Shown here in pieces: positions 856 through 35,367 of a stretch of DNA of 64,000 nt. Numbering within the stretch: the stretch's first letter is position 1; every line of letters starts with the position of its first letter. A program made the position numbers and the translations under genes. The DNA is taken from contig CM038998.1 of NCBI GenBank assembly GCA_017499595.2, positions 310,001-374,000 on the forward strand. Direction: 5' to 3'. The stretch is from Psilocybe cubensis. Its lineage: Eukaryota. The notes beneath the pieces were generated by a model, which worked only from the letters and a program-made list of their open reading frames with translations, was not told the DNA's origin and made no database searches.

Positions 856-3800
856 ATGGAATTTGTCGAAATCATCTTCCAACTCGCTCCTGTACCCTAT
901 TTAGACTTCAGCTTTACCGTTTTCAAGGGACTGTGGGATGCCCTGAAAGATGTTCAGTCCAGCAAGCAGCAATTCAACGTCCTAGCGCAGTCAGTAGCAC
1001 AATTGTTGCATATACTGGACAAAGGGTTTCGATCTGGAAGTATAATGATGGACGATCTATCGTCAGATGCTCTCATCGACTTGGAAAGGTGAGCGCAGCA
1101 TGTCTTCTTGGAACAAAACAAAATGCACTGAACGACGCAGATTGCTCAAGGACATATCCGCGTACATACAAAAGCAGTCAAATTTTGGATTCGTCAAATT
1201 GCTTCTCTTAAAGGAGGAAAGACTAGCGACTATAGAGGCGTTTAATCGACGTATCTATAACAACATCAACGCATTTCAGGTAGGTGCTATGAAAGCACTG
1301 GACACCTGGGTGTTAACATTACCGCTAGGTTGCCGCAATGATTGATATTCGAGTGTGGCAAACACGAAATGAAGAAGCTCGAAGGAACGATCAGGGAAGC
1401 CTACATGCCCGACTCCGCCATCTGGAAGCCAATCAACGACTCCTGATAGAAGCGCTAGGTCTGTACTTCTACCCATGTTGAATAGCACCGACTCACCGAA
1501 CCGATAGATATTCCTCACAGTGGCCCTCAGGCAATCATGGCTACTCTTCGCAGACGTGTTGATGAAAGGAAAGGATCTGACGAAGAATTAAGATTCCTGA
1601 AGCACAGTCTTAGTTATCTGAGCACTACAAGCAATCACCAAATCGACCTTCAACCCTGGACTATTACTTCCTACGACGTCGAATTTGGACCTCTCATTGG
1701 CGTTGGAGGATTGTACGTACAGATTCGTTTCTTCTGATGATGTGCGCTTACATTTGTCTAGCGGAAGGGTATACCGAGGGAAATGGAATCACACAGATGT
1801 GGCTTTGAAGGTGATGCGGAATGCTGGGGATATATCTCCTAGGGCATCCGTAAGCCTGGTGTTAACTTCTTTGTACTATGTCATAACCTCTTGAAATTAT
1901 AGGCCGTCCGTCGTGAAGTTGAGGAAGGTCGCCCCCTTTTATTCACGAGCCATTGACCAACTACTTGTTATACAGACATGGTCGAAGCTACGCCACCCTA
2001 ATATTCTTCGTAAGTCTGATTTTCGAATGTGAACTTCCCTGCTCAATGTTTGTTAGAATTCTTGGGGGCCAATATCCTCGATGATGAACCATTTCTCGTA
2101 ATGCCATTAGTAGAAGGAGGGAATGCTCGAGACTACATTGATAATCACCCTCATTGTAATAGGATCAAGATTGTGGGTATCCGATTACACTCTTTTTGTA
2201 CGTTTCTCACTTTGGTAGAAATCAGGTTCAGCAAATAAGTCTGGGATTGACCTACCTTCATTCACAATCTGTAGTTCACGGAGATCTCAAGGCTGTGAAT
2301 GTCCTCATAGACGACGCAGAGAGGGCATTGCTATGTGATTTTGGATTAGCGAGGTTGAGAGCTGATGTCAACAGCCGGACAGCAGACTCGATTCCTCTGC
2401 AAGGAAGTCAAAATTGGATGGCTCCTGAGTTATTTGAAGGTCGATCCCTACGTATGCCATGCGACATCTACTCCTTTGGCATGACATTGTACGAGGTGAG
2501 CTTCAAAATCGTCCTCGCATACGCCACGTCCTCAGGAACCAATGTCGCAGATATACACGGGTGAAATTCCCTTCGGACACTTATCTCCTCAGCTTATCCC
2601 TAAACTTGTAGCAAAGCGAAGAATTCGTCCAGAGAGACCAGAACATGAAGAGGCACCATACCTAAGCGACGATATTTGGAATGTTGCTCAGCATTGCTGG
2701 TCTCATAGCCCAGCAGACAGACCTTTGGCCATCACTCTTAGCGAAACCCTGACTGTACTTCTCCATACAACTCGAAATCGACCTCAGGTTTCGGTACCCC
2801 ATCCCCAAGACAAAGTTCTTGAACATACTGGAAACATCGTTATGACAAACGGGACTTATTCCACTAGCAACAATGGATACACATCACTCGTATCCCCTCT
2901 GACGACGTTATACAGTATCCCTGATTCCCCTTTTGGAACCAACCAAATAATCCCCGATACTCCTCCTCGGTCCATGCATGGTCTTCCGCAACGCCTCAAT
3001 GACGACTACGAGGCCATCCATGAACACCCTCCCCCTGCATTTCCTGTACCTAATGTCCATCAAAACCCTCCTCCTGCCTTTCCGACACCTGGTCTTCCCA
3101 ATTCACAGGGCACATATGAAACCATGTTTAGGTTTGAAAGTTTCGCCCTGTCGCTTCCTCCGGTCGAAAGAATAAAGATAATCCCAAACAAAAGACTTGT
3201 CCTAGCTTTCGACATTGGAATCTCATACAGCAGCATTTCCTACAGGTGTGTCTTCTACCTGCCGCTGTTAGGAACTTTAGTGACCGCAAAATATGCCAGC
3301 ATCATTGAAGATAATCAAATGTCAGAAATTAAGGGCGTGACGATGTAAGCTCATCTTCAAGTTACTAATTGTTGGGCCCCACTGAAACGAACCAGAATCT
3401 CTGATCGCGACCAATTGAGTGGATCTTTCAAGGTCCCAACAACAATCTATTATGATGAGTTTGGAGAGTTACGCGCTATCGGAGCAGAAACGATGTCTGA
3501 AGAGGTTATCAAAGTTGCCGAATCCAACGGTTGGAGAAAGGTTAAATGGTACGTGGGGCACGTTGTGCCACTGTTGCGCCTGCTAAAATGTTAACCATGC
3601 TATTGTATGGCTTCATAATCAACTACCAGGTTCAAGCTACATCTATGGCCACATATCATCCCTGGCAAGAAACACACAAACACAACCCTACCCTCTAACA
3701 AACGACCTGAGGATATTCTTAGCGATTACCTCCAATATCTATATCGCTGCTCTATCACATATATCAAGAAAACGCATATTAATTGGCAGGAGCTATCTCC

Positions 3801-4972
3801 TCTATTCAGCTCTAGGGATGATATCGATTTTGTTCTGACCTATCCGAACGGATGGGATGGGGTTCAGGAGAAGATGACACAGTCTGCTGTATTGGCTGGA
3901 CTTGTTTCTGACGATGAAGCTGGCAGATCCCATCTGTCCTTTGTAACTGAGGGAGAGGCTAACCTATCCTTCGTCTTAGGTCATAGTGCACAGGACACGT
4001 TCCAAAATGTGTGTATATTGCCTTCTATAACTTTGATATGTCGATCATTGACAATTGAATAGGATGTGGCTGTTATTGTCGACGCAGGGGATTACATGGT
4101 CACCATAAGCTCCTACGTCAGAAATCCTTCTAATGTTACGCCTTCGTTTGAAGAAATCACTCAACCTCTGCGTAAGTATGCTATCCCGCCTTCCTCCAAA
4201 GCACCAAGTTGTACTTGTGATACTTATGACATTGCCAAAGGTCACCTCAGTGGCTCGATATTTGTGACCTCTCTAGCCAAAACATTCTTCCAACGTTCGT
4301 CTATATGCTTTTCTACAAAGTTCACTATGGCAAATAAACAAAGGCACATACGTTTCTAGGCACACTCTCGGATTCTAAATTCAAGGATCGAGCGGATATT
4401 GTCCTTCAATCATTCGAACGAACAACAAAATTCAGATTTAGCAATCCTGGAGAACCTGAATACCTTACCATAGGCGGAGCGAAAGATAACGATAAAAAAA
4501 GACACATCAAACGCGGCCAGCTAAGGTTGCAAGGGTAAAATTCTCGTCCTTTCTAAATGTGATGTCTGTTTGCTTACTTCTCACAGCGCTGACGTCGCGT
4601 CATTTTTCGAGCCTTCGATCAAATGTATTGTAGATTCGGTGAAGGAGCAGCGAAAAACGTCCCGCGAAAAAGCTACGGTACGTCCTCCTTATGCACCCCT
4701 GAATCGCCATGATCTTTCTGATGCATGTTCTTTAGCACGTAATTCTTGTTGGAGAGTTAAGTGCTAGCGAATGGCTTTTCTCCCGCGTCACCGCCGCATT
4801 CTCACCATTGGGATATTCTGTGATAAGGCCCGACTATTATATGTAATTCATTCTTATCATTCTATTGATCTCTTTATCCGCTGACCTGATTCTTCCACTA
4901 AACAGCAACAGATCTGTTGCGGACGGTGCTATTTTCCACTACTTCGAGAACAGAAAGCATCGTCAAATATAA
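856..4972 (+). CDS. Multi-exon fusion protein: MLKL-like N-terminal helical bundle + TKL-type protein kinase + Pro-rich linker + degenerate Hsp70 (HSPA12-like) nucleotide-binding domain
   Basis: N-terminus MEFVEIIFQLAPVPYLDFSF...LLKDISAYIQKQSNFGFVKLLLLKEERLATIEAFNRRI...FQ resembles basidiomycete MLKL_NTD domains. Kinase motifs are IGVGGFGRVY, VALK, HGDLKAVN, DFG, WMAPE and DIYSFG. ORF 2542-3348 runs without a stop from the kinase C-lobe to RLVLAFDIGISYSSISY. Later exons give KVPTTIYYD, FKLHL, FVTEGEA, IVDAG and VADGA. Stop TAA at 4970-4972. Confidence 0.85.
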
Positions 4973-5271
4973 AGCAATATCGTTCAAAATTGTACTAGTA
5001 GTCAATACATTTATTTCTTACAACGGTCGAATGTATTCATGAATGTCATGATCACGCCCAGGACGATACAGGACATAGAAACAAACCTAAGATGTGGAGG
5101 GTGTAGGTATGAAAATACACAGATATATTTGCAATCCTATTGAGACGGAAAAACAGATTCACTTCCATCGAGGTGCGATTCCGATCCCAGCCCATACTCT
5201 TGGATGAAGACAACATAGCCTTGGATAACTAACCCAAGCAAAGACCTTGAAAGTGACTAATGATATCAAAA

Positions 5272-7206
5272 TTATAAACGACCATTTGGAACCTTAGAAG
5301 CTGGGATTTCGGCCTGCAGAGCACTTGAGAAGATAGCAAGAGATTCGTCGGTATACGGTGGGTAACGGGCAGCGAAAGATGGCTCATCCCTATTACCAAA
5401 AAAATTAAGAATTGAAAAATGATAGAATGAGTACACCTACTCAAATGGAACATCTACAACCCCTCTCTCGTAAATAAAGTTTTCGAAGCTGTAACGCATG
5501 ATTTGGCGCCCATCTGTAGCACAGCGGATTAACGATTTGCTCGTGACGCTCCACAGGAAATACAATACGTACATCCGGATTCCCCGACCCCGCCAAAGGG
5601 TAAATCATCAACTAGACATAACGATGAGTCATGAATTATTGAACAGTAAGGGAATGAAAACATACTTCCTACTTGCTGGAATGTGTCATTGATCCAGAAA
5701 TTTCCGCTAGTGGTGTTGGCGAGGACTATTTGATTACATTCTCAAAATTCATATTCAATGTGGAATCATATGGAAATGTACCTTTCTTCTTCGCCTCTTC
5801 GTCATTGGAAAACAGGTATAGAGTAAGTGGGTGATCGCTGGATTGAAAGGTCACCAGTCAAGACGGAGAGTCAAATAAAACAAAATAATTGAAACAGACC
5901 GATCACCCAAAAATTCAATCGCCTCGTCAAGGTTTTCAACTGCGACTAAAGGTAAGATGGGACCAAATAACTCTCTATATGTGTCTCGTCAGGATTGTGG
6001 ATATCGTTGATTCAAAAAATCAACTCACTCCTCAAGCAGTGCATCCCCTTCCTTAACATCAACTACAAGGGTGGGTTCAAACCCACGCTTCCCTTCCCCT
6101 TCCTCCCACTTCCCGCCGAAGACGATTTTGCCGTTCGTTCTCTTCAGAAGGCCCTTCAGCCGTTCAAAATGAGCATCGGATACGATTCTGCTGAAGGAGT
6201 TTGAATTAAGCGCGCCATCTGGGTAGAATGCACGATAATGCTGTTTAAACGCTTCAATGAGCTGCGGCACGATCGCCTTCTCTGCGAGAACGTAGTCGGG
6301 CGCGACGCAGATCTGGCCTGAGTTATTGATCTTTCCCCATAGGATACGCTTCGCAGAGATTGAGATATCCGCCGTCGAATCTACAATAACAGGCGACTTC
6401 CCTCCCAATTCGAGTGTCAGCGGTGTTAGGTGTTTGGCAGCAGCGGCAGCGATAATTCGAGCCACACGCCCGTTTCCGGTATAGAAGATGTGATCCCCTA
6501 ACAAAAATTAGCGTCTACGTGGCTGTGGGTGATAGTAATCCATACATTTCAACTCAAGGGCTTTGGTAATCTCGGGGACAGCACCCAATATGACACGGTA
6601 CGCCGATGGATCGATGTATTTGGATAGGTTCTGGGCAACAAACGCAGACCAGTGCGGGGTGAACTCTGATGTCTTGAGAGCGGCACAGCACCCCGCTGCG
6701 ATGGCACCATACAATGGCTGGAGGGTCAAAACAATAGGGTAATTCCAGGGCCTAGAAGGATGTCAATACGTCATTACAATCTCAATGAAAACTTACGAGA
6801 TGATTAACACAACGCCCTTGGGCGGCCTCTCGACTCTCGTCTTGAAAGTTTTATTCCATGGTGCAGTCAGTGTGACAGCTTCTGGACCCATCCACTCCTC
6901 CAATTTCTCTGCAGCAGCTAGAGGCCGATTGACAATAGGCGCCACTTCTGCCATGATGGCCTCTTGTTTCGGTCGTCCCAAATCTAAGCGAAGACATTCG
7001 GCAAGCGCATCCGCATTCTCTTTCGCAAATCGAGCCAGTTGTCGCAACTGGTGACGACGCCATTCGAGAGGCTTGGTTTTCCCTGAACGAAATGTCTTTC
7101 GAAGCTCGTTATGGATCTAAACATAGGCTTTGAATATGATCAATGGCCATTGAAACATAGTAGAACAAACGTTTAAAATCTCTGGAATGGGAGTGTAGTC
7201 GGCCAT
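5272..7206 (-). CDS. Aldehyde dehydrogenase, ALDH3/fatty-aldehyde type (multi-exon)
   Basis: Motifs PWNYP, FYTGNGRVARII, LELGGKSP, NSGQICVAPDY (catalytic Cys) and ELFGPILP. Start MADYTPIPEI at 7206; ends ...ARYPPYT...VPNGRL* at 5272. Confidence 0.93.
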
Positions 7207-7836: not shown

Positions 7837-9139
7837 CTAATTATCACCCATTATCTTACCCTTCTTCCCAACTTTTTTGAAAACCCGATGTACCAGTCCT
7901 TTGCTCTTCCCTCGAACTGTGCCTGAAGATGTAGACATGTTCTGAATTTCAGTAGAGGTACGGGAATGTGGGTTATCCCCTTGCTGAGTATCCAATTCTT
8001 CAGATGAGGCATCCCGATTGGGACCGGGGCCCAGGACGGTAGGTGGGTTAAGATCCTCTTGTGAAAAACTGGAAGGGGCATCAGCACACATAGTATTATT
8101 CTGCAGCATAATGGAAGGGGAGCTAGGCATGTTCGCTGCTGTCAACAAATTTGGTGCCGATGAAGTCGAGGCTCCTCCGTGGATGGCCCCAATCACCGTT
8201 GTTGAGGTGGCTGTCTGACTGAAGTCACCATATATTCTCCCTGAATGCTGGTTGTTTGTAAAAGATGTGTTGTGTTGTCCACCCTCAAGGCTGTCCACAA
8301 CAAGTTCCATACTGAACTCGTCTGAAGCTTCCGGAGCAGGCATTCCTGGAGAAGGATAACGTATTGCGCGTTCTTGTGATATTCGAAGCAGCGATTCATC
8401 GCTGAAAGCTGGGGATGTGTCGTTCTTCCACTTAGGTGAGTGAGAACCTGACAAAACTAATTAAATTATATATTGTAATCAGGATGTGAATTTACCTTTT
8501 CCATTTGTAAACTCGGTGCCCATCCCAATATCCGATGGGCGTTGTGCTGTTGACGGTGGTCGTAATGCTCCAGAAGATCCACTGGTCACAGTATGCGATG
8601 GTATGGGACTCCTTGGTATCCTAAAGCTTTCATTTGTTTGTGGGCGTAGACCTCCATCTTAGTAGATCAATTAACAATAGATAATGATAAAGATTGCGAT
8701 TTTACTTACCTCTCGGGGGCACACCCTGTGATGGCGAGCTTGACTGTGATCCTGAAGAATAATCATATAGATCACCACCAATAGCTTGAAAATTTCCATT
8801 GGTTATCTTGAAGTTGCTTGCGCCTTCAAAATATTTTACCGACGACGATTGTATCGGTCTTGTACCAGGCCTTTGTGGCATAGGGCTTGGTGGCAAGCCC
8901 GACGAAGGTGGTGACCTGATATAGTAGGCATTTCCACTGACTGCAGAGAAATCCCCTCCATTGATCTCAAACCCGGTACTGTTTGTGAAATACTCCACTC
9001 CACTCTGATTTCCCTGGGTCCTGGATCTGTTGTTGTAATACAAATCTTCTGTGACGGATTCTTCGTCAGAGGAGAAGTCATCATCCTCATCCTCGTCTTG
9101 GTGAAAATGTAGATCATTTCGATTGGTCCGATGGTGCAT
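7837..9139 (-). CDS. Low-complexity protein with two motif-A putative amyloid signalling motifs (3 exons)
   Basis: Starts MHHRTNRN. YFTNSTGFEINGGDFSAVSGNAYY at ~8921-8992 and YFEGASNFKITNGNFQAIGGDLYDY at ~8759-8833. Two phase-1 GT-AG introns join it in frame to ORF 7837-8454. No globular domain is recognisable. Confidence 0.75.
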
Positions 9140-9977
9140 AGCGCGCACGTCGAGGAGGGTTGTAAAAGCTTTCAGCTGATGATGGTGGTGGTGAAAGGGA
9201 ATTTGACGCCCAGTGGCAAGGTGACATGCTGCCTGTCCCACGGTTCTTGGATTTGACTCATTCTTAATTTACGACATGGCTATGAAGGGTCGATCCCTGT
9301 AAATAAAACAAGGCAACCACAGCCTCACGAACCAATGTGACTTCCAAAATTTGGCATCAACTTGTATTAGGCATAACTCGTTGTGATTAAAGGCTGTTCT
9401 GATGCAATTCAGTTTGTGCTTACCAAAACGGACGGAATAGGATGAATGCAATTTTGAGTGGCTCGTTAGGTAGTAGGCACCCTTCTCAGGACCGTTCGGC
9501 TACAATAAATGTGTCCTCGCTATTGACTTGGACATTGAATTGAAGGAACGGATGCCAGCTGCTACATTTTACTCTATGGATTAGGGCTCAGAAAGCTACT
9601 ATCCGCGGGCACCCGGCGACAAAAGGAAGAGAGCCTTTTGGTCATACTGCAGTTGCGGGTTCTTCCTCGGTGGGGTTGATGTGTAACTTGTTGAATTGCA
9701 CCGTGTAATAGTCGATAGTGGTGGTGGCTATGCATTTGATCAACAACATATTTCTTTCGGGATGAGCAGGGATAGAGATTGTGACACACTTACGGGACAT
9801 GCGATAATCTTTCTGTCCCGAATCATTATCGGGACAGAATGGAACGGGTACCGGCAGAGCTGGAGTACGTTTGTGAAGTTGAGTTTTTGTGGGATTCGAA
9901 CTGGAGGGAGAAAATGCTTGTCTACTCCCTGCTTCTCCACATTTCCTGTCTATTGAATACGACAGATATATCAGTTC

Positions 9978-10409
9978 CTACTCAATATTGTAACGCGCTT
10001 TGAGGGCTTTACGTTTTCGTGACCTTTGGTGGCTAGTATTTGCAGAGCTTACTTCTCCCTGACACGGAGAGTGAGACCCTAGATTTGGATCGACATCGAT
10101 AACGTCGTAGTGGTCACCATGAATATACGAAAATATTCCATCCTTTATTTGAAAATGAGAAAGGTTTTTGAAGCGAGAGGTATTGGTGTGGGATGTCTTT
10201 CGCTTGTTTCTTCGCCTGCTAACATCTCTATCTGATGGATGACATTGATAAAAGTTTCCTCCAATAGATGAGAAGTACCCCCCATCGATCACAAAGTTTG
10301 TGGCCCCAGTGAAATTCTCGACCCCTGGGCGGCGAGGAGGCAAGCCTGGAGGAGATTCGTCATTCGCGCCCCGGGTTCCGTGGTATCCAACATCACCTAT
10401 TGTTGTCAT
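9978..10409 (-). CDS. Small protein with two motif-A putative amyloid signalling motifs (3' end uncertain, may splice on toward ~9600)
   Basis: Starts MTTIGDVG. NFTGATNFVIDGGYFSSIGGNFYQ at ~10245-10316 and RFKNLSHFQIKDGIFSYIHGDHYDV at ~10101-10175. Candidate splice donors lie near the 3' end of the ORF. Confidence 0.65.
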   Translation of the reverse strand: MTTIGDVGYHGTRGANDESPPGLPPRRPGVENFTGATNFVIDGGYFSSIGGNFYQCHPSDRDVSRRRNKRKTSHTNTSRFKNLSHFQIKDGIFSYIHGDHYDVIDVDPNLGSHSPCQGEVSSANTSHQRSRKRKALKARYNIE

Positions 10410-10897
10410 AATTTGCTGTAGGTGGGAAGAGTTATTCAATAGGACTTGATAACGGTTGTTTATAAAGAAATTTGTTAGCGTGCCCGTCCAGAGATGCCAG
10501 TGGTTGTAATGTGCCACTTGAACACAGTTTGCACTCTGCCTTGAACACCTGGAAATATCACAAATTTTACCATCACGTGATTCGAAGCCGGAACAGACGC
10601 GTCGAGCGACGCAACGGTACTAGACCGCGAGAGGGTCAATGAGAGTCAGGTATTTACTTTAACAACATTCATACCAAATATCTTTATGTAAATTTTCTTG
10701 ACTGAATCCACGCTCCTCACTATTTAGATAAAGTATGCAAAAACAATTTATTACCTTTGTGTAAATGAATTTCCAGTAGTTCATTTACACAAAACCAAAT
10801 TTATTATAAATGCACATATGTAATCTACATGCATCTTCTATTTACTTCTTTGAGGATATACGCCGTGCTAGCAAGGGTACTTTCAGCAAGGTGCTTG

Positions 10898-12739
10898 TTA
10901 TGTTAACTGCCACCTACCAGATTTTCGCTTCTGTTTGGAAGTAACATTCCCAGAGTTAGTTATGTTGATGTTTGCAATGTTTCCGCTATTAATGTTGTGA
11001 ACCGAAATAGGAGTATTCCCAGATGGTATTGTCTGATGGCTCGCATTGGGCATGGATTGGTGAATATACGAACTTGGGTACAGAGGATGTGAATAAGATT
11101 GAACCGACGGAGAATGAGGTGCATACTGTAATGCTGAGAAGGTGGAGCCATACTGATAACCTGCTTGCCAGGGACCGATTGAACCCGGATATCCCAGAAT
11201 GGTCTGTGCGAATTGGTTACTGACATTGTCGACGGCCGGAGAATGGGCTTTTGGCGAGGTCGTTTTGGGAAGCTCGGATTTCGGTGGCTTTTGCGATTGT
11301 TTCTTTGGAACAGGAATGTCTGGCTCCGTCTCGTACTCTGAGCTATCTCCACTTCCCACCTCAGAGCTCCCTTCACTAATATCTAGTGATCCCATTTTCT
11401 GCATAAGTTCCTCAATTCTCCGACGCTCCTTTTTGTATCGTCGTTCTAGTTCCCTCTTTCTCTTCGTCTCGCTGTTTATTGCATCCTGGATTCTCCTTGC
11501 CTCTTGTTTTGCTTGCAGTTCGGCTTCTATCTCCAACCGACATTGGAGTTCAATTTTTGCGCGCTCCTCCGCTCTGATTCGCTCCAGAGCCTCTCTTTCC
11601 TCGAGTTGCTGACGGGATCGCTCTTGCTGACGCTCGCGCAAGGCACTCTCTTCATCATCCCTTCTTCGCCTAAGGTCGTCTGCCACTTGAATTCTTAATA
11701 TTGAGTTCTGCGCGTCCAGCTCCTCGATTCGTCGTTGCTGGGAAATAATCTCTTCCTCCGCTGCAGCTTGCTGCCTTCTACGATTGTCTTCCTCTTCTTG
11801 CAATCTTCTAACCTCTTGATGAAGTCGTGCCTCGCGCTCTTGCGCATCTATGCGTTGGTGAACTTCCTCGATGTCATGCCGTGCCTTCAGAAGTTCTGCT
11901 TGTCTCCGTGCCTCCTCTTCCTTCATTTGATTTTGCAATATCAAGCTTAGTGCATCATGAAGGCTCAGGTGAGAGGATACCTAGAAAAGTTTCTGACAGT
12001 TAATTGAAACTCGGATATACAATATTCGTAATGTACCTCGAACATATCTATGGCCGTTTTCAATCGTTGTCGGAACTCCTCTATCTTTCCGGCATCTGCG
12101 GCACTGTAGACCAGCCTTGTCACCTTTCCCCGCCTGAGCTGCTTGTTGATAGCAGCTTGTATGTCTGCCAGTGTTCTTTGAAATCTTATCAAATCCGGAG
12201 TATAACAGTATGAAACAAGAACGCGTACCTTACAAAGTCGTCAATCACAGCTTTGATATCCTGTGGAGGCCAATTGTCTTTGTTAGGTGAGCGCTGGTAG
12301 GCAGAGTATACTGTTGTGATGAACTCCATCGCTTCTTGACCAAGTCTTTCGAAAGCGATTTTGTTCTCTTTCACTGTCTGTCAAGTAAGGTGTCAATGTG
12401 GAGAACATGATGAAAACTATTAAAAATACTGACTTGAATGATCTCAACGATTTTGAGCGTAGCACCCGCAGCCTGCTTTAGGTAAGGAATCGGAGCCAAA
12501 GATGATGCTTCCTTGACGATGTTCAGTAGTACAGATCCTCCATTAAGCGTTGTGTCGATCCAATTGTGTTCTTCCCCAGTTTCTGGGCCCATTGGTACCT
12601 TCGATGTTGACGAAGCCGCAAATTGCAAGGTAGTAAACATGCCACCGCCCGTGTCAATGCCTTTTCCAGGCTTGACCTTGCCTTTTCCTTTGTTATTCAT
12701 AGACGAATCATGGGTATCGACAGTGCTGAGGGCGTTCAT
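10898..12739 (-). CDS. MLKL-like N-terminal domain + long coiled coil + C-terminal motif-B putative amyloid motif (4 exons)
   Basis: Spliced sequence LLNIVKEASSLAPIPYLKQAAGATLKIVEIIQ|TVKENKIAFERL...|RTLADIQAAINKQLRRGKVTRLVYSAADAGKIEEFRQRLKTAIDMFE|V is typical of basidiomycete MLKL_NTD. An E/R/Q-rich coiled coil of ~190 aa follows. The C-terminus has NINSGNIANINITNSGNVTS at 10937-10996. Confidence 0.82.
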
Positions 12740-29688: not shown

Positions 29689-29871
29689 TGTCATGATATG
29701 ACCACACACGTGATCCCGCGCTGTTATCCTCCTTCGTAGATACAGTATATCCTTTAGCTTTGACCACTTCGTTATTAGGTATGTACTACTGGTACATACT
29801 CCATTCTTTATATAACTTCGTTATTAGGTTACCTTTCGTGCTGCATTGCAGACCACAGTGAGAACCTTACA
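29689..29871 (+). repeat. 5' LTR (183 bp)
   Basis: tgtcatgatatg...gagaaccttaca; identical to 35522-35704 on base-by-base reading. Confidence 0.97.
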
Positions 29872-29959
29872 CTTGGTCAAAGCTCTTATACGTTCAACCC
29901 GTTTCCTTCCGGAGAAATTTTTTTTTTCGGCATTTGCGCCTTTGGGGCTTCTTTCCAGC

Positions 29960-31114
29960 ATGCCGGATGGGAATTCCACTACGATAGGAGAGGGCGAGCA
30001 TCCGCCGCCACCCCCCACGATCACCAATCCTATTGCGCAGGAGGTTTATACGGCCTTGGAGGTGTTGCTTGCACCCAGGTTGTCCGAGTTGGAGCGAGGC
30101 CTGGAGGAGGCGGCAGAGGGTTTTTCTCGTCTAGAGGTGCAGAACCAGGAACTCCGCGCTGCGTTGGCGGCAACCGAGCAACGACTTGATGCCGTGAGCG
30201 CCGCTCGTGCTCGTCCCTCTCGGATGCCGAAAGTTAATCCTGCCACGGTGTTTGATGGGACAAGCAAACAGAAAGCGGAGGAGTGGGTTCAGCAGATATC
30301 GGTTAACCGCCACTTTGAGGAGTTTTCCAATGATGCGCAGTGTATTCTATGGGCGCAGTCTTATCTATCTGGGCAGGCATACTCGTGGTCGGCAGTCATT
30401 ACACTCGGCGACGCAGAGGGTGGAAATTCCGAACTCCGTGAAAATTGGGATGCATATCTGGCAGCATTCAAGGCCACATTCTGCTCTCGTGACTCGGCAC
30501 GCGATGCTACACAGCGCCTCTTGGGCTTCAAGCAGGGCCAGAAATCCGATACCCAGTACATTACTGAGTTCCGCGAGTTGGTTGCTCGGTTGCCAGTAGC
30601 AGATAGGACTGGGACATTTGTGGATGCGTGTTTCTGGGCTGGTTTGTCTTTACAAACCAAGCAGCTTCTGGCTCACTCAGACTTCAAGGGGGCAGAGGAA
30701 GCCCAGGCAATTCTTTTGCGTCGCGAAACACGACATGCAGACATTGCAGCAGAACTACGACGTCACGCTCCTCACCCACACCGCAGTCCTGCAGTGCCTA
30801 CACCTGCTATTGCACGGTCAGCTTTACCTTCAGGAACTCATGCTGTTCAACCCCGCCCTGCTCAGGCATCCCTTCCTCCTGCTCCACGTGATCCTAATGC
30901 TATGGATGTTGATGCGGCCCGGCACTTACCTCGGAAATGCTATCGATGTGGAGAGAGTGGTCATGTTCGTGCCAACTGTCCATCTACTGTTGCTCGGCTG
31001 CGGGCAGGGCTTTTAGAGGAGGTCACAAAGGTGCTTGAAGCACATGGATTGGGAACAGTTTCCTCCGAGCCACCCATAGCGGAACCTGCAGCCCCCGAGC
31101 CGGGTTTTGTGTAG
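29960..31114 (+). CDS. gag: Retrotransposon Gag
   Basis: MPDGNSTT...FDGTSKQKAEEW...FKQG...YITEF, then DPNAMDVD and the CCHC zinc knuckle CYRCGESGHVRANC. Confidence 0.95.
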   Translation: MPDGNSTTIGEGEHPPPPPTITNPIAQEVYTALEVLLAPRLSELERGLEEAAEGFSRLEVQNQELRAALAATEQRLDAVSAARARPSRMPKVNPATVFDGTSKQKAEEWVQQISVNRHFEEFSNDAQCILWAQSYLSGQAYSWSAVITLGDAEGGNSELRENWDAYLAAFKATFCSRDSARDATQRLLGFKQGQKSDTQYITEFRELVARLPVADRTGTFVDACFWAGLSLQTKQLLAHSDFKGAEEAQAILLRRETRHADIAAELRRHAPHPHRSPAVPTPAIARSALPSGTHAVQPRPAQASLPPAPRDPNAMDVDAARHLPRKCYRCGESGHVRANCPSTVARLRAGLLEEVTKVLEAHGLGTVSSEPPIAEPAAPEPGFV

Positions 31115-31116
31115 GG

Positions 31117-34100
31117 TTGCCTTGCCTTGTCGCTGCAAGTGCAACCCAGAACAGGTTTTCTGTACTTACGCCTCCAAATAAATTGGTTTTGACTGGTCCA
31201 AATCAGACTGTGCCTCGCCGCCGTCGTTGTCGGACCCGCCGTGCAGCTGTGATTCATGCTCGTTCTCCTCGATCACAGTTTTCTTCCTTTGAAATTCCAA
31301 TTACTATTCATGTACACAAAACCGCGACACCCAATGTGCCTACCATTATTGATACTAGGGCAATGCTAGATTCGGGCGCTAGCTGCTGTTTCATTAATCC
31401 ACGTTTTGTGGAGCAACATGGCCTAATTTCAATCCCAAAGAAGAGGAGCCTCCGTTTGCGCACAATTGACAACTCTGAAATCAAGTCGGGTCTTATCACT
31501 CATGAAGTCCACCTCAAGGTTTTCATCGACTCACATTCGGAATTGCTAGTATGCGATGTTACTGATATTGGGGATGACAACCTTATATTTGGGATTAACT
31601 GGCTACGGCGACACAATCCGGTGGTAGATTTTGACCGCTCTACCTTGGATTTTACTTCGGAATACTGCAGGCAGAGGTGCTTACCTTTGCCGGAGGCCAT
31701 AACTGCTGCAGCTGCTTCACCTTCACCTGGAAGGCTGCGTAAGCGACTGCTAGAAAGGCAACGCCGCCGTGCACGCCAGCACGCACGGGAGGCGAGACGT
31801 ACTGGGTTGGAAGTTGAGGCTGATGATGTGGAGAGGTTGAAGCTGTTACATCCAGTCCGGCAAAAACCAGGCCGTAAGACACCTCACACGCATAGCCAGT
31901 GCCGCCAAACCAACACATGTGGCGCTACGGGCCGACTTCGCATTCGGAGGGAATCTCTGCACTTTTTAAAATGTTCGCGTGCAAGTTGGACACAGATGAC
32001 ACGTGACCTACAGGCAGATGCACTTCGTGTTGCACATGCAGAGATTGCAAAAGCTTTGGAGCATGCAGTGCAACAAGAAGAGGCAGGTGGGGTGGTTGAG
32101 GGTGTGTCCTTGGAACAGTGCTGGGATGGAGAATCACACCGTGGATGCCAGGGGCCAGGTATTCGTGCTGCCGCCAGTCATTCAGTATCACAGCGCCTGG
32201 CAGAGGCTGCAACTCCTGCAAAAGCTACTGGCTCAGTTGAAGATTTAGTGCCTGCAGAGTTTCACGAATTTTTGGATGTCTTTGATAAGGGTCGGTCCGA
32301 ACGGCTTCCGGCCCATAAGCCCCATGATTTGGCGATTGAGTTAGAGGGCAATGTGCCACCTCCTGTTGGCAAGCTATACCAGATGTCAGCAGCAGAGCTT
32401 CGGGCACTGAAGGAATTCATTGATGACAACCTCAAGAAGGGTTATATACGGCCCTCCAAGGCCCCGTGTGGAGCTCCTGTTTTCTTTGTCAAAAAGAAGG
32501 ACGGATCTCTCCGTCTTGTGGTGGATTTTCGTGCACTCAATGCCATCACGCGGCCCGATGCATACCCAATTCCTCTCTCCGCTGAACTCCTAGACCGTCT
32601 CAAGGCAGCAAAGGTTTTCACTACCTTAGACATGCGATGGGGTTACTACAATGTGCGCATACGGGAAGGTGATGAATGGAAGACTTCTTTCCGGACCCGT
32701 TATGGCCAATTTGAATTTTTGGTTATGCAGTTTGGTCTTCGCAATGCTCCGGCTGCCTTTCAGCGCATGGTTAATGATCTATTCCATGACCTTGTCGACA
32801 TTAATGTGGTACTCTACCTGGACGACATTATTATCTTCTCTCAAGACCCTTCAAAACACGACGAACAGGTTAAGGAAGTCTTGCGTCGCCTTCGGAAAGC
32901 AGATCTGTTTCTGAAACCAGAGAAGTGTCAGTTCCGCACGACAGAAGTGGATTATTTGGGATTTCGTATCTCACCTGGTTGTGTTGGCATGGACCCAGTC
33001 AAGGTCAGCGGGGTAACGGATTGGCCAGTGCCACGCAATGTTCGGCATGTTAGTCGCTTCCTTGGCTTCTGTAACTTCTATCGCCGCTTTATTGCAGACT
33101 ATGCCAACATTACCCGCCCACTGGAGAATTTGAAGCGGAAAGACATGGCTTGGAGGTGGGGTGATGTGGAGCAAGCGGCGTTTGCACAGTTGAAGCAAGC
33201 ATTTATACAAGCACCAGTATTGATGCTGCCGGAAATGGAGGCGCCATTCCATGTTGAGACGGATGCATCAGATTTTGCTGTAGGAGCCATCCTGTCGCAG
33301 AAGGATGCAGCTGGTGATTGGCGCCCCGTGGCTTACTTTTCAAAGGCTATGCAACCCGCAGAGCGCAACTATGATGTTCACGACAAGGAGTTGTTAGCTG
33401 TTGTGCGTGCTCTTGAAGTCTGGCGACCATACCTGGAGGGCAACCCCTTCTGTATTGATATATTTTCTGATCATCGCAACCTGGAGTTCTTCATGACAGC
33501 TCGTGATTTGAATCGCAGACAGGCGCGGTGGAGCCTTTTTTTGAACCGTTTTGTCTTCAAGATCCACCACCGGCCTGGCCGTTTGAGTGCAGGTCCAGAC
33601 GAGTTGTCTCGTCGTGCTGACCACATCCACGGGATGGCCCGTGACAATGCTGCTATGGAGATCTTGCCAGCAGAGAGGCTGGGGCAGGATTCCAATGATG
33701 GTGGTGGTGGTACGGTGTTGGGAAAGCGAGGTGTGGTGCTGGAGCTGCGTTGTTGTGGTATGTCCAAGGTGGTGGCTAGGGTGGGGCAAGTTATACGTGC
33801 CGACAAGGAGATTATGGACAGGATACGTACAGTGTCTCGTAAGGACCCCAAGTTGGATCTCATGTGGGATTTACCTAACGCTCCCGGCCTTGTTCAACGT
33901 CGGCTGAAGGACTTTGTGGTGGATGATGGCGTGGTGCGGTTTCGTGGGCTGGTGTATGTGCCCAATGACGAGGAATTGAAGCGTTGGATTTTGCAGCTGT
34001 ATCACGATGCGATCCCGGCAGGCCACCCTGGTATCTCAAACACGCTGGAGCTGGTGTCACGGAACTACTATTGGCCAAGGATGTCAGAATTTGTTGCTCG

Positions 34101-35367
34101 GTATGTTGATGGATGTGATACTTGCCAACGCACCAAGCCCCGTCGACAGAAACCCTATGGAAAGCTACAACCCCTTGAGGTGCCTGCAGGTCCTTGGCAG
34201 CACATTTCCACCGATTACATTGGGCCGCTGCCACCATCGCAGGGATACGACGCGGTTCAGGTGGTCTGTGACAAGTCAACAAAGCGTGCCCACTTCCTTC
34301 CGGCACACACCACCGATGGTGCAGTAGAAATGTGTGACACCTTCATAGACCGGGTATGGTCTTTGCATGGGACTCCCAAGAAGATTGTGTCGGACATGGG
34401 GCCACAATTTATTGCGAAATACACAAAACGTTTGTGGGAACGTTTGGGTATTAAGCGCGCGATGTCATCCGCTAATCACCCACAAACCGATGGTCAGACA
34501 GAGAGGGTTAATCAGGAATTGGAAATTTACCTGCGCGCGTACGTCGACTACTACCAGGACGACTGGGTGCAGTGGCTTCCCTTTGCAGAGTTTGCCTACA
34601 ACAACAGACACCATACAGCAATAGGGATGTCCCCATTTTTTGCTGAATACGGCTATAACCCATCGTTTTCCGTGGATCCTGTGAATTCGCAATCAGTTCC
34701 ACGCGCCGACGAGAGGCTGGAGCGCATCCACAGGGTGCAGGGCGAGCTGCAGGCAATTCTGACACTCACCGCGGAGAGGATGAAGAAATTTCACGATGAT
34801 TGGGTGGATGAGGCACCCGACTACATCCCTGGTGATCGTGTCTTCTTGGAACGCTCTGACCTGCGCTCATCGCGCCCTAACAATAAATTGGATTTTCGTC
34901 GTTTTGGGCCTTTCCGTATTGCACAGAAAGTCTCCGATTCTGCATATCGATTGGAGTTGCCTGCTGGTTGGGCCATTCACGATGTTTTCCATGTCTCGTG
35001 CTTGATCCCAGCTCGTACGGACACCATTCTGGGCAGACGACAGTTGCCGCCGCCGCCTGTGTTAATGCCCGGCGGCGAAGAGCGTGAAATTGAGCGCATA
35101 CTGAGGGAGCGGCGGACGAGGGGTGGTGTTGTGGAGTTTTTGGTGAAGTGGCTTGGGTTTGACGAGAGCGAAAACGAGTGGATTCCAGAGTACGGCATGC
35201 AAAATGCACGCAGATTGGTGGCAAAGTTTCGTCGGGAGGAAGCTACGAGGGGTAAGGTCAAGATTTCGCGCAAACAGGGAGTCTCACGACGGGTGAACAC
35301 AGAGGGAGGGGCTGTGGAAGGGGTGTTGCAAGGACGTCGTCGAGGGCGTCCTAGGACAGTTGGCTGA
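31117..35367 (+). CDS. pol: Retrotransposon Pol (protease, RT, RNase H, integrase, chromodomain), probably translated by -1 frameshift from gag
   Basis: Protease LDSGAS, RT YLDD, RNase H ETDAS...DKELLA, integrase H...GHPG...CDTC and SDMG/QTDGQTER, chromodomain EIERIL...FLVKWLGFDESENEWIP. Uninterrupted 1416-codon ORF. Confidence 0.97.
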   Translation: MPCLVAASATQNRFSVLTPPNKLVLTGPNQTVPRRRRCRTRRAAVIHARSPRSQFSSFEIPITIHVHKTATPNVPTIIDTRAMLDSGASCCFINPRFVEQHGLISIPKKRSLRLRTIDNSEIKSGLITHEVHLKVFIDSHSELLVCDVTDIGDDNLIFGINWLRRHNPVVDFDRSTLDFTSEYCRQRCLPLPEAITAAAASPSPGRLRKRLLERQRRRARQHAREARRTGLEVEADDVERLKLLHPVRQKPGRKTPHTHSQCRQTNTCGATGRLRIRRESLHFLKCSRASWTQMTRDLQADALRVAHAEIAKALEHAVQQEEAGGVVEGVSLEQCWDGESHRGCQGPGIRAAASHSVSQRLAEAATPAKATGSVEDLVPAEFHEFLDVFDKGRSERLPAHKPHDLAIELEGNVPPPVGKLYQMSAAELRALKEFIDDNLKKGYIRPSKAPCGAPVFFVKKKDGSLRLVVDFRALNAITRPDAYPIPLSAELLDRLKAAKVFTTLDMRWGYYNVRIREGDEWKTSFRTRYGQFEFLVMQFGLRNAPAAFQRMVNDLFHDLVDINVVLYLDDIIIFSQDPSKHDEQVKEVLRRLRKADLFLKPEKCQFRTTEVDYLGFRISPGCVGMDPVKVSGVTDWPVPRNVRHVSRFLGFCNFYRRFIADYANITRPLENLKRKDMAWRWGDVEQAAFAQLKQAFIQAPVLMLPEMEAPFHVETDASDFAVGAILSQKDAAGDWRPVAYFSKAMQPAERNYDVHDKELLAVVRALEVWRPYLEGNPFCIDIFSDHRNLEFFMTARDLNRRQARWSLFLNRFVFKIHHRPGRLSAGPDELSRRADHIHGMARDNAAMEILPAERLGQDSNDGGGGTVLGKRGVVLELRCCGMSKVVARVGQVIRADKEIMDRIRTVSRKDPKLDLMWDLPNAPGLVQRRLKDFVVDDGVVRFRGLVYVPNDEELKRWILQLYHDAIPAGHPGISNTLELVSRNYYWPRMSEFVARYVDGCDTCQRTKPRRQKPYGKLQPLEVPAGPWQHISTDYIGPLPPSQGYDAVQVVCDKSTKRAHFLPAHTTDGAVEMCDTFIDRVWSLHGTPKKIVSDMGPQFIAKYTKRLWERLGIKRAMSSANHPQTDGQTERVNQELEIYLRAYVDYYQDDWVQWLPFAEFAYNNRHHTAIGMSPFFAEYGYNPSFSVDPVNSQSVPRADERLERIHRVQGELQAILTLTAERMKKFHDDWVDEAPDYIPGDRVFLERSDLRSSRPNNKLDFRRFGPFRIAQKVSDSAYRLELPAGWAIHDVFHVSCLIPARTDTILGRRQLPPPPVLMPGGEEREIERILRERRTRGGVVEFLVKWLGFDESENEWIPEYGMQNARRLVAKFRREEATRGKVKISRKQGVSRRVNTEGGAVEGVLQGRRRGRPRTVG

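Follow-up and report, generated by a model that had tools for sequence, protein, structure and literature searches.

The 64,000-nt stretch of Psilocybe cubensis DNA analyzed in this study (contig CM038998.1 of assembly GCA_017499595.2, forward-strand positions 310,001 to 374,000; hereafter, the window) contained a gene at 856..4972 on the forward strand that near certainly encodes one expressed protein with four parts, namely an MLKL-like helical bundle with brace helices, a TKL-type protein kinase, a disordered Pro-rich linker, and an Hsp70-fold domain. The reading that we favor, at a probability of roughly 0.55, is that this four-part protein is expressed and that the bundle would serve as its output, the kinase as its switch, and the Hsp70-like domain as its input. 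Sequence comparison indicates that the fusion of bundle, kinase, and Hsp70-like domain (N, K, and H, respectively, in the counts below) is a conserved subfamily and is not private to this genome. A first-pass annotation of the same DNA had described a three-part gene with an intact-looking kinase; each of its statements on the sequence was found again, and the three parts were borne out as one 19-exon gene by fold, family, transcript, and comparative evidence, whereas the kinase has a predicted helix αC that is two residues short.

Gene Structure and Transcript Evidence

The gene model was assembled from stop-to-stop open reading frames (ORFs) and the sequence of the window, and comprised a coding sequence (CDS) of 3105 nt for 1034 amino acids (aa). 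Exons 1-10 were located at 856-1088, 1141-1279, 1329-1458, 1508-1712, 1762-1849, 1903-1917, 1976-2009, 2057-2172, 2226-2495, and 2551-3245, and exons 11-19 at 3300-3344, 3396-3548, 3630-4008, 4063-4171, 4241-4294, 4360-4534, 4587-4677, 4736-4842, and 4906-4972, all on the forward strand. The introns between them (18/18) showed GT-AG borders and were 47-81 nt in size. A search with exon 10 retrieved a single protein (P0001, P. cubensis, 1013 aa, 100% identity), which is named "Protein kinase domain-containing protein" in UniRef. P0001 is the same as the gene model up to aa 1012 and differs only in the absence of the last exon; this public annotation runs into the last intron and ends in ...DYYM at a TAA stop (4843-4845). 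The spliced contigs and the relatives described below contained a further exon of 67 nt (4906..4972, forward strand), which is absent from the public annotation and reads NRSVADGAIFHYFENRKHRQI followed by a stop, with the joint 4842>4906 present in both X1 and X2. The relative P0123 reads YYINKAIADGSIFHY and the ORF of the metagenome locus L004 ends in ...NKAISDGAIFHHIDNASART, both of which match this extra exon. The deposited P0001 therefore lacks 21 residues and ends in an incorrect one.

Splicing was examined in contigs from four sequencing runs, of which X1 and X2 were taken as cDNA-like solely because their contigs skip introns, neither being on record as RNA, and X3 and X4 were DNA-like and used as a contrast. 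Seven of the 18 introns (2496-2550, 3549-3629, 4009-4062, 4172-4240, 4295-4359, 4678-4735, and 4843-4905; all GT..AG) were skipped exactly in X1 and/or X2 contigs, and no such joints occurred in X3 or X4. The X1 and X2 contigs do not cover 1071-2326, which holds most exons of the N-terminal domain and the kinase N-lobe, including a micro-exon, and introns 10 and 11 have no listed joint; the other 11 introns are therefore predicted only. Record 2 of X1 (709 nt) spans 2549-3245, its remaining 12 letters correspond to the last ones of exon 9, and record 8 of X2 joins 2396-2493 to 2549-3199. One spliced transcript contig thus carries the C-lobe of the kinase together with the linker and strand 1 of the Hsp70-like domain.

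The junction between kinase and Hsp70-like domain is contained in exon 10, in which the C-lobe of the kinase is followed by about 150 codons of linker and then by KRLVLAFDIGISYSSISY, all within an ORF that is open from 2500 to 3348. By our own arithmetic, about 150 random codons would stay open at the base composition of the window with a chance of about 2e-4. The linker itself (2746..3189, forward strand; aa 476-623) is rich in Pro, Ser, and Thr, matched no Pfam family, and had a predicted local distance difference test score (pLDDT) under 50 in the part that was folded. When the exon fragments were compared with Pfam, the kinase was the sole domain found. The earlier claims that the frame runs stop-free from the kinase C-lobe into the first Hsp70 strand and that the fusion is no splicing artefact hold, as exon 10 is open, transcript contigs extend over it from exon 9 to its end, and the junction is conserved in metagenome copies.

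Conservation of the Fusion

Among 229 annotated relatives, 38 contained both bundle and kinase, 116 only the Hsp70-like domain, 73 only the kinase, and one only the bundle, with no case of kinase plus Hsp70-like domain; 105 further annotated relatives comprised 72 with bundle and kinase and 33 with the kinase only, none of them with an Hsp70-like domain. Fragments that share the odd motifs of the P. cubensis protein were found in P0143 (Flammula alnicola; DAGDYMVN), in P0209 (77% identical), and in P0123, which stems from an intronless contig of 1058 nt and contains DAGDYMIN and GELSASEW. A scan of metagenome contigs yielded 13 loci, ten of which (L001, L003, and L006-L013) were ordinary HSPA12-like genes without a kinase. 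The other three carried colinear parts on the same strand, with four gene copies in all: L004 (N 1040-1836, K 1837-2970, and H 3447-5046, on one strand), L002 (two convergent N-K-H copies at 1266-5225 on the forward and 10490-6485 on the reverse strand, which stand tail to tail on an 11-kb contig), and L005 (K and H on one strand of a contig that begins inside the kinase). The domain-architecture search that the first-pass annotation had suggested for a bundle, a kinase, and an HSPA12-like domain thus found none among the 334 annotated relatives besides P0001, but four gene copies in metagenomes. The idea that the fusion was unique to P. cubensis, as the annotated proteins implied, was dropped once these loci appeared.

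Common to the fused metagenome loci are the motifs DAGEYMIN and LLGELSGSEW as well as a short terminal exon. In three of the four copies, the junction contained an in-frame intron of 55-56 nt (GTGAGA...CCAG) with an apparent stop codon in its donor, and in the fourth the frame was directly open. The second copy at L002 (L002B) is nearly the same as L004 and has an indel ahead of the junction intron, by which its frame stays open if this intron is not removed. A quick maximum-likelihood tree, built from 128 rows and 120 columns of the exon-13 region, placed all six rows of the fused or degenerate kind in one clade with a Shimodaira-Hasegawa-like approximate likelihood ratio test (SH-aLRT) value of 96. 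P0123 and L002B were omitted from the tree, as their match to this region was too short or interrupted. The same domain order, the degenerate motifs, and the in-frame junction in four copies on three contigs thus indicate that the fusion is conserved. Current annotation overlooks this N-K-H family outside P. cubensis and shortens the P. cubensis protein.

It is highly improbable that an adjacent bundle-kinase gene and an HSPA12-like gene have been read as one by an error of annotation. Such an error would fit the observations that nearly every HSPA12-like relative stands alone at a size of about 600 aa, with the first strand a median of 11 residues from the N-terminus, that no annotated relative carries the fusion, and that the first copy at L002 (L002A) has an ATG just ahead of strand 1. 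However, a single exon is stop-free from the kinase to strand 1, the transcript contigs span the end of exon 9 to the end of exon 10, two of the four metagenome copies (L004 and L005) have no in-frame ATG upstream of strand 1 from which a separate Hsp70-like protein could start, and three copies carry the conserved in-frame junction intron over an apparent stop.

The C-Terminal Hsp70-Like Domain

The C-terminal part of the protein (3190..4972, forward strand; aa 624-1034, exons 10-19) is an HSPA12-like nucleotide-binding domain (NBD) of the Hsp70 fold, and the protein ends after this domain. Residues 620-1013 retrieved 80 Agaricomycete relatives with 32-47% identity, most of which are stand-alone proteins of about 600 aa and several of which are named "Heat shock 70 kDa protein 12A/B" or actin-like ATPase in their sources. 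A model built with 60 relatives as the alignment had a pLDDT of 87.6, and its listed Foldseek matches were all NBDs of the Hsp70 family (such as those of BiP, mortalin, DnaK, and Ssz1), with an E-value of 1.1e-15 and template modeling (TM) scores of 0.63/0.67 for the best match. Conservation in at least 90% of the 60 relatives was seen at 111 columns, of which P0001 retains 80, whereas none of the 60 falls below 89 (mean 106.8). At such columns, GTT is replaced by GIS, GGGT.D by GDYM.T, and GGF by GEL; we take the replaced motifs to be the phosphate-1, phosphate-2, and adenosine motifs of Hsp70 ATPases, respectively. The same changes are present in P0143, P0123, L004, and L002. Judged from these residues, the domain is very probably without ATP binding. 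It also lacks the C-terminal extension of its relatives, which run a median of 191 aa past the end of P0001, with the true stop 21 codons later.

Differences between strains were compared along the gene as a partial sample, with 28 of them listed and 64 more outside the list. All five listed indels within the gene span fall in introns, and 14 of the 22 listed exonic differences are synonymous and eight non-synonymous, whereas 77% of random changes in the CDS would be non-synonymous. The Hsp70-like part had seven synonymous and two non-synonymous listed differences, and the linker five and four, respectively. These listed differences indicate that the Hsp70-like domain is under purifying selection.

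Degenerate ATP motifs were also seen, in part, in P0013 of Phlegmacium glaucopus (VYAGGET, VGEF), which is a stand-alone HSPA12-like protein, and this suggests that the nucleotide site was lost more than once in the HSPA12-like family. Longer HSPA12-like proteins (P0002-P0005, P0022, P0040, P0055, and P0077) were considered as carriers of foreign fused domains, and this was rejected because only repeated or weak actin-fold matches were found in them. Several stand-alone HSPA12-like proteins form same-species sets (P0012 and P0025; P0061, P0067, and P0073; P0062 and P0065; P0037 and P0039), and those from the same species often come from contigs of equal size (4,331,851 nt in P. cubensis and 55,256 nt in Candolleomyces). 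There are hints that the HSPA12-like family is expanding in tandem arrays.

The N-Terminal MLKL-Like Bundle

Exons 1-4 (856..1650, forward strand; aa 1-215) encode the predicted MLKL-like N-terminal domain and its brace helices, as indicated by an AlphaFold2 model and its fold matches. The model of aa 1-227, for which 34 relatives served as the alignment, was all-helical with a pLDDT of 92.5. It consisted of a short extra helix (2-8), the bundle (14-30, 37-60, 70-91, and 102-122), a short helix within it (95-100), and long helices over 131-209 that resemble the brace of animal MLKL (131-158, 160-167, 173-187, and 192-209). Passages of PMC9815663 describe two features of basidiomycete MLKL-like domains, an additional helix that precedes h1 at the N-terminus and a short one that lies between h3 and h4; the modeled helices 2-8 and 95-100 agree with both features, and the alignments to MLKL begin at model residue 13-14.

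Among 48,161 chains of the PDB, the three best matches to this model were all MLKL, from human, mouse, and Arabidopsis: the human N-terminal domain (6ux8) with a Z of 12.7 and a root-mean-square deviation (rmsd) of 3.4 over 138 of 152 residues, mouse MLKL (4btf) with a Z of 11.5, and AtMLKL3 (6ka4) with a Z of 11.1 and an rmsd of 2.3, where helical bundles reach a Z of about 13 by chance according to the warning of the fold tool. The alignment with 6ka4 extends over model residues 13-225 and thus takes in bundle and brace together. The best Foldseek match of the domain was likewise MLKL (2msv; probability 0.98, TM 0.64 by target length, E-value 0.74). The fold match taken alone is suggestive rather than conclusive, and the likeness of P0001 to the executioner four-helix bundle of animal MLKL is one of fold, without a match at the level of sequence. 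Pfam found nothing in aa 1-215 of P0001 at an E-value of up to 1, with MLKL_NTD, HeLo-like, and Goodbye-like profiles as the families of interest. At the sequence level, relatives provide a connection. A search of 1.84 billion representatives found many proteins that align over aa 1-480 at 40-47% identity, and the Pfam family MLKL_N (PF22215) matched four of 35 relatives, with a best E-value of 2.7e-6. Furthermore, residues 4-495 of P0001 align in a single stretch with the chytrid protein P0324, residues 47-165 of which match MLKL_N at an E-value of 3.9e-6. The bundle begins no more than 15 residues from the N-terminus in 66 of the 72 further relatives.

When four copies of aa 1-227 were predicted as a complex, the interface score ipSAE was 0.53, compared with 0.00 for the best control; the interface is mainly formed by helix 124-167, the runs share at least 54% of contacts, and the partner pLDDT is at least 66. 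In calibration, 21 of 30 proteins with a solved pair of identical chains attained the mark used for this score, as did 0 of 23 solved as single chains. Among eukaryotes, 17 of 29 solved pairs attained it, but only one of the seven that had no older solved relative; four copies are unlike this calibration. The model supports self-association of the bundle but does not show it.

The Kinase Domain and Its Helix αC

The kinase domain (1684..2745, forward strand; aa 227-475) matched PF07714 with an E-value of 1.5e-45 and PF00069 with 8.5e-42. It contains the glycine loop GVGGFG, VALK (K252), E270, HGDLK (338-342), N345, DFG (358-360), and APE (386-388), such that the profile is that of a TKL kinase with the Lys, the HxD...N, the DFG, and the APE all in place; its HGD form (non-RD) is the norm of this kinase family. 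The VALK, HGDLK, and DFG motifs reported by the first-pass annotation are thus present, together with N345 and APE. The kinase fold of animal MLKL is a pseudokinase that is activated by RIPK3, according to passages of PMC12881547. In the P. cubensis protein, the pseudokinase state is not indicated by K252, HGDLK, N345, DFG, or APE, which are all retained, and only helix αC is atypical. The best 60 solved relatives of the kinase were EGFR, CTR1, RAF, BRAF, MLK4, and TNNI3K, and neither a RIPK nor an MLKL was in this set. The earlier proposal that the gene combines MLKL-like and RIPK-like parts therefore stands in its first half, as "MLKL-like" is valid for domain order and, in the model, for fold, whereas "RIPK-like" applies only in the broad sense of TKL.

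The αC glutamate is encoded by a micro-exon of 15 nt (1903..1917, forward strand; AVRRE), which is predicted and has no transcript contig over it. Related loci have a micro-exon of 21 nt that ends at GAG/GTTGGT or GAG/GTTAGT (GGG/GTTGGT in L002B), with the slash marking the splice site, whereas the window reads GAG GAAGGT at the same place and has its sole in-frame GT donor 6 nt upstream. The splice donor has thus probably been lost in the window (GA for GT), by which αC was shortened by two residues. A canonical length of αC sets the glutamate opposite the β3 lysine; in the predicted product, the span from the glutamate to the HPN anchor lacks two residues that 33 of 33 aligned homologues possess, and, counted back from that anchor, an arginine occupies the position expected for the glutamate. 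Judged from the sequence, the kinase of this copy may be impaired, or the copy may be drifting.

Loss of this donor would be expected if the P. cubensis gene were a pseudogene in the making, with a crippled kinase or a truncated product. We consider such decay unlikely. It would account for the GA that stands where related loci have a GT directly after GAG, for the two αC residues that all aligned homologues have in addition, and for the deviation of the Hsp70-like domain at 31 of 111 conserved columns. However, the frame is open across all 19 exons, the downstream exons are spliced in transcripts, and the listed strain differences are mostly synonymous, both in the gene (14 vs. 8) and in its Hsp70-like part (7 vs. 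2). In addition, the degenerate motifs (GDYM/GEYM and GELS) are common to relatives, which argues that they are old and conserved rather than a product of recent decay.

The Wider Bundle-Kinase Family

The N-K-H subfamily is nested in a far broader family of Agaricomycete proteins, in which an MLKL-like bundle and a kinase are combined with a varying C-terminal module. The ten longest N+K relatives, which are a biased sample because they were picked by length, all have an additional domain, which is TPR_10/12 in three of them, SH3 in another two, and WD40, EH plus EF-hand, USP7 ICP0-binding, a HECT fragment, and FHA in one each. In a hand tally of precomputed Pfam matches in 119 relatives, TPR_10/12 ranked first with about 45 rows and WD40-type propellers second with about 15; the others were FHA, SH3, USP7, HECT, Ras, ankyrin, Sec7 plus PH, RhoGEF, UBA, VHS, and PNP_UDP. 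The above-mentioned P0324, from the chytrid-grade fungus Gonapodya sp. (907 aa), contains MLKL_N, a kinase, and a PNP_UDP phosphorylase in one protein, and this architecture indicates that bundle-kinase scaffolds to which another domain is attached are found far outside Agaricomycetes. The description of the Hsp70-like part as an extra integrated domain in the first-pass annotation fits these results, as it is a truncated copy, degenerate in its ATP motifs, of an otherwise stand-alone family, and the relatives carry other modules at the same end.

Genomic Neighborhood

Further downstream in the window, a gene of four exons in the model and 558 aa (10898..12739, reverse strand) contains a homologous MLKL-like N-domain, a long coiled-coil-like stretch, and an asparagine/glycine (N/G)-rich tail. 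The N-domains of the two genes are 28% identical over 163 residues (pairwise E-value 2e-9), and LAPVPYL (aa 10-16) of the bundle-kinase-Hsp70 protein matches LAPIPYL (aa 81-87) of the neighbor; the shared LAP[VI]PYL signature and bundle similarity noted in the first reading of the sequence are thereby confirmed. Aldehyde dehydrogenase exons (6025..7116, reverse strand; PF00171, E-values 1e-26 and 7.8e-08) lie between the gene and the motif cluster, as that reading had also stated. Two ORFs of this cluster, 8702-9268 and 9978-10619 (both on the reverse strand), each contain two copies of a repeat of about 26 residues (F.I..G.F..I.G[ND].Y) and have no Pfam match; the arrangement of their repeats resembles the paired pseudo-repeats of amyloid signaling domains. 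The linker sequence GNIVMTNGTY... was considered as an amyloid-like motif and rejected, because a profile of the four repeats of the cluster found nothing in it and shuffled linkers scored higher. By the same profile, no C-terminal amyloid motif of the HET-S/HELLP type was detected in the linker. No other copy of the kinase or of the Hsp70-like domain was found within the window. The first-pass annotation had proposed the protein as a second death effector or sensor of this locus, which no test supports; the case for a functional tie between the gene and the amyloid cluster consists of proximity and the shared bundle family. Two overlapping ORFs of 428 and 1442 aa in 29828-35367 (forward strand) read by eye like gag and pol of a long terminal repeat (LTR) retrotransposon, with a zinc knuckle (CYRCGESGH) and stretches that resemble reverse transcriptase and integrase.

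Comparison with Known Systems

Animal MLKL shares with the P. cubensis protein an N-terminal four-helix bundle, brace helices, and a TKL-type kinase fold in the same order, as well as self-association, which is predicted here via a brace-like helix. It differs in that the P. cubensis kinase keeps its catalytic residues and in that a short N-terminal helix and a third, Hsp70-like domain are added. The basidiomycete MLKL-like domains (BaMLKL) and the HeLo/HELL domains of fungal NOD-like receptors (NLRs) and amyloid-controlled effectors contain the same kind of bundle with both extra helices (passages of PMC9815663), and the neighbor 6 kb away has such a bundle and an N/G-rich tail. Some HELL domains occur in proteins with a kinase or pseudokinase domain (passages of PMC12881547). 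Unlike these systems, the P. cubensis protein has neither NACHT nor NB-ARC, for which no Pfam match was found in P0001, and no amyloid motif of the neighboring cluster is detectable; control would be exerted by the kinase and the Hsp70-like domain instead. Neither PMC9815663 nor PMC12881547 uses the word "Hsp70" in its main text, a literature search that paired MLKL_NTD with Hsp70 found no paper, and a search on HSPA12 in Agaricomycetes returned nothing relevant.

In plants, wheat Pm13 is a kinase fusion immune protein in which an MLKL_NTD is followed by a serine/threonine kinase domain (PMC10951266). Plant MLKLs and Pm13, which act in plant immunity, thus have the same order of MLKL_NTD and kinase, and AtMLKL3 was the third-best fold match; however, they belong to another kingdom and this likeness need not reflect orthology, and Pm13 as described has two domains with no counterpart of the Hsp70-like part. 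The atypical Hsp70 proteins of the HSPA12A/B type share the NBD fold and, as 80 Agaricomycete proteins, 32-47% identity with the C-terminal domain, whereas the latter has no C-terminal extension of roughly 170-190 aa, has replaced ATP motifs, is fused behind a kinase, and belongs to a separate clade.

Plant NLR-ID receptors bear integrated domains (IDs), which are copies of cellular proteins appended to the receptor. The P. cubensis protein is similar in that a degenerate copy of a free-standing protein stands on a receptor-like scaffold whose relatives have varied appended domains; it is unlike in that the scaffold is a bundle-kinase rather than an NLR, and the decoy role would be by analogy. 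The MLKL-type bundle-kinase scaffold is already known, and the conserved pseudo-Hsp70 end is what is new.

Possible Mechanism and Significance

In the favored reading, the bundle would be the output, which upon activation would oligomerize via the brace helix and act on membranes, and the kinase would be the switch that holds or releases it. The enzyme would be kept in the same chain, where it would replace a separate RIPK3-like kinase, and release might occur by autophosphorylation or a conformational change. The C-terminal module would be the input, in this case a putatively ATPase-dead Hsp70-like domain that would bind a partner rather than hydrolyze ATP. This domain might mimic the stand-alone HSPA12-like proteins and so act as a bait, or it might serve as a docking site for them. 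By analogy with the systems compared above, we infer a possible function in death or immunity and a possible role of the Hsp70-like domain as bait.

Several results weigh against this reading. Unrelated bundles scored close behind MLKL in the fold search (HIP1R THATCH, Z 10.8; HHM, Z 10.6), and helical bundles can reach a Z of about 13 by chance. The Foldseek match to MLKL has an E-value of 0.74, and P0001 has no Pfam match to MLKL_N or HSP70 at an E-value of up to 1; the MLKL_N match of P0324 scores 26.9 bits, just below the Pfam cut-off of 27. The self-association score may be a memory of solved MLKL or AtMLKL oligomers. The shortened αC with its displaced glutamate, the annotated relatives without the fusion, and the partial sample of strain differences belong here as well, and the frame of L002B would be lost if the conserved junction intron were spliced. 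Nothing in the data indicates a binding partner of the Hsp70-like domain, and no cell killing by any basidiomycete MLKL-like domain was found reported in the passages of the literature covered.

The protein might instead be an ordinary signaling kinase without any part in death or immunity, in which the bundle is a regulatory or oligomerization module and the Hsp70-like domain a scaffold that connects it to HSPA12-like chaperone complexes or their clients. This explanation is possible, if somewhat unlikely. The kinase is catalytically equipped, with CTR1, RAF, and MLK as its nearest solved structures, one relative (P0282) is named a MAP kinase kinase kinase by its sources, and other relatives bear general signaling modules (SH3, FHA, EH/EF-hand, Ras, and GEF); four-helix bundles are common, with unrelated ones at a Z of 10-11. 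On the other hand, the three best fold matches are all MLKL, with 6ka4 covering bundle and brace, and the bundle stands at a free N-terminus in 66 of 72 relatives, as it does in MLKL and HeLo proteins. Moreover, the commonest C-terminal modules of the family, TPR_10/12 and WD40, are also the sensor repeats of fungal NLRs (passages of PMC12881547), and a gene at a distance of 6 kb combines a homologous bundle with an amyloid-like tail.

Extending the favored reading of output, switch, and input to the whole family, Agaricomycetes may possess a repertoire of single-chain "necroptosis modules", each with an executioner, its own active kinase, and an interchangeable sensor or bait. The present gene would stand for a conserved branch in which an ATPase-dead HSPA12-like bait protects the expanded HSPA12-like chaperone family from an effector of a mycovirus, a bacterium, or a fungal competitor and triggers cell death once the bait is touched. 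This extension is doubtful at present; if it were true, such modules would form the kinase-based counterpart of NLR-ID receptors and of plant kinase fusion proteins.

MLKL-like bundles are proposed executioners of necroptosis-like death in fungi and are known mainly as N-termini of NLRs or as amyloid-controlled effectors. Here, such a bundle is joined to a kinase that looks active by its motifs and to a conserved Hsp70-like domain that is apparently catalytically dead. Three separable domains in one expressed gene provide a concrete system for asking whether basidiomycete MLKL-like domains kill and how the kinase controls them, and the gene also allows one to ask whether fungi use integrated baits as plants do.

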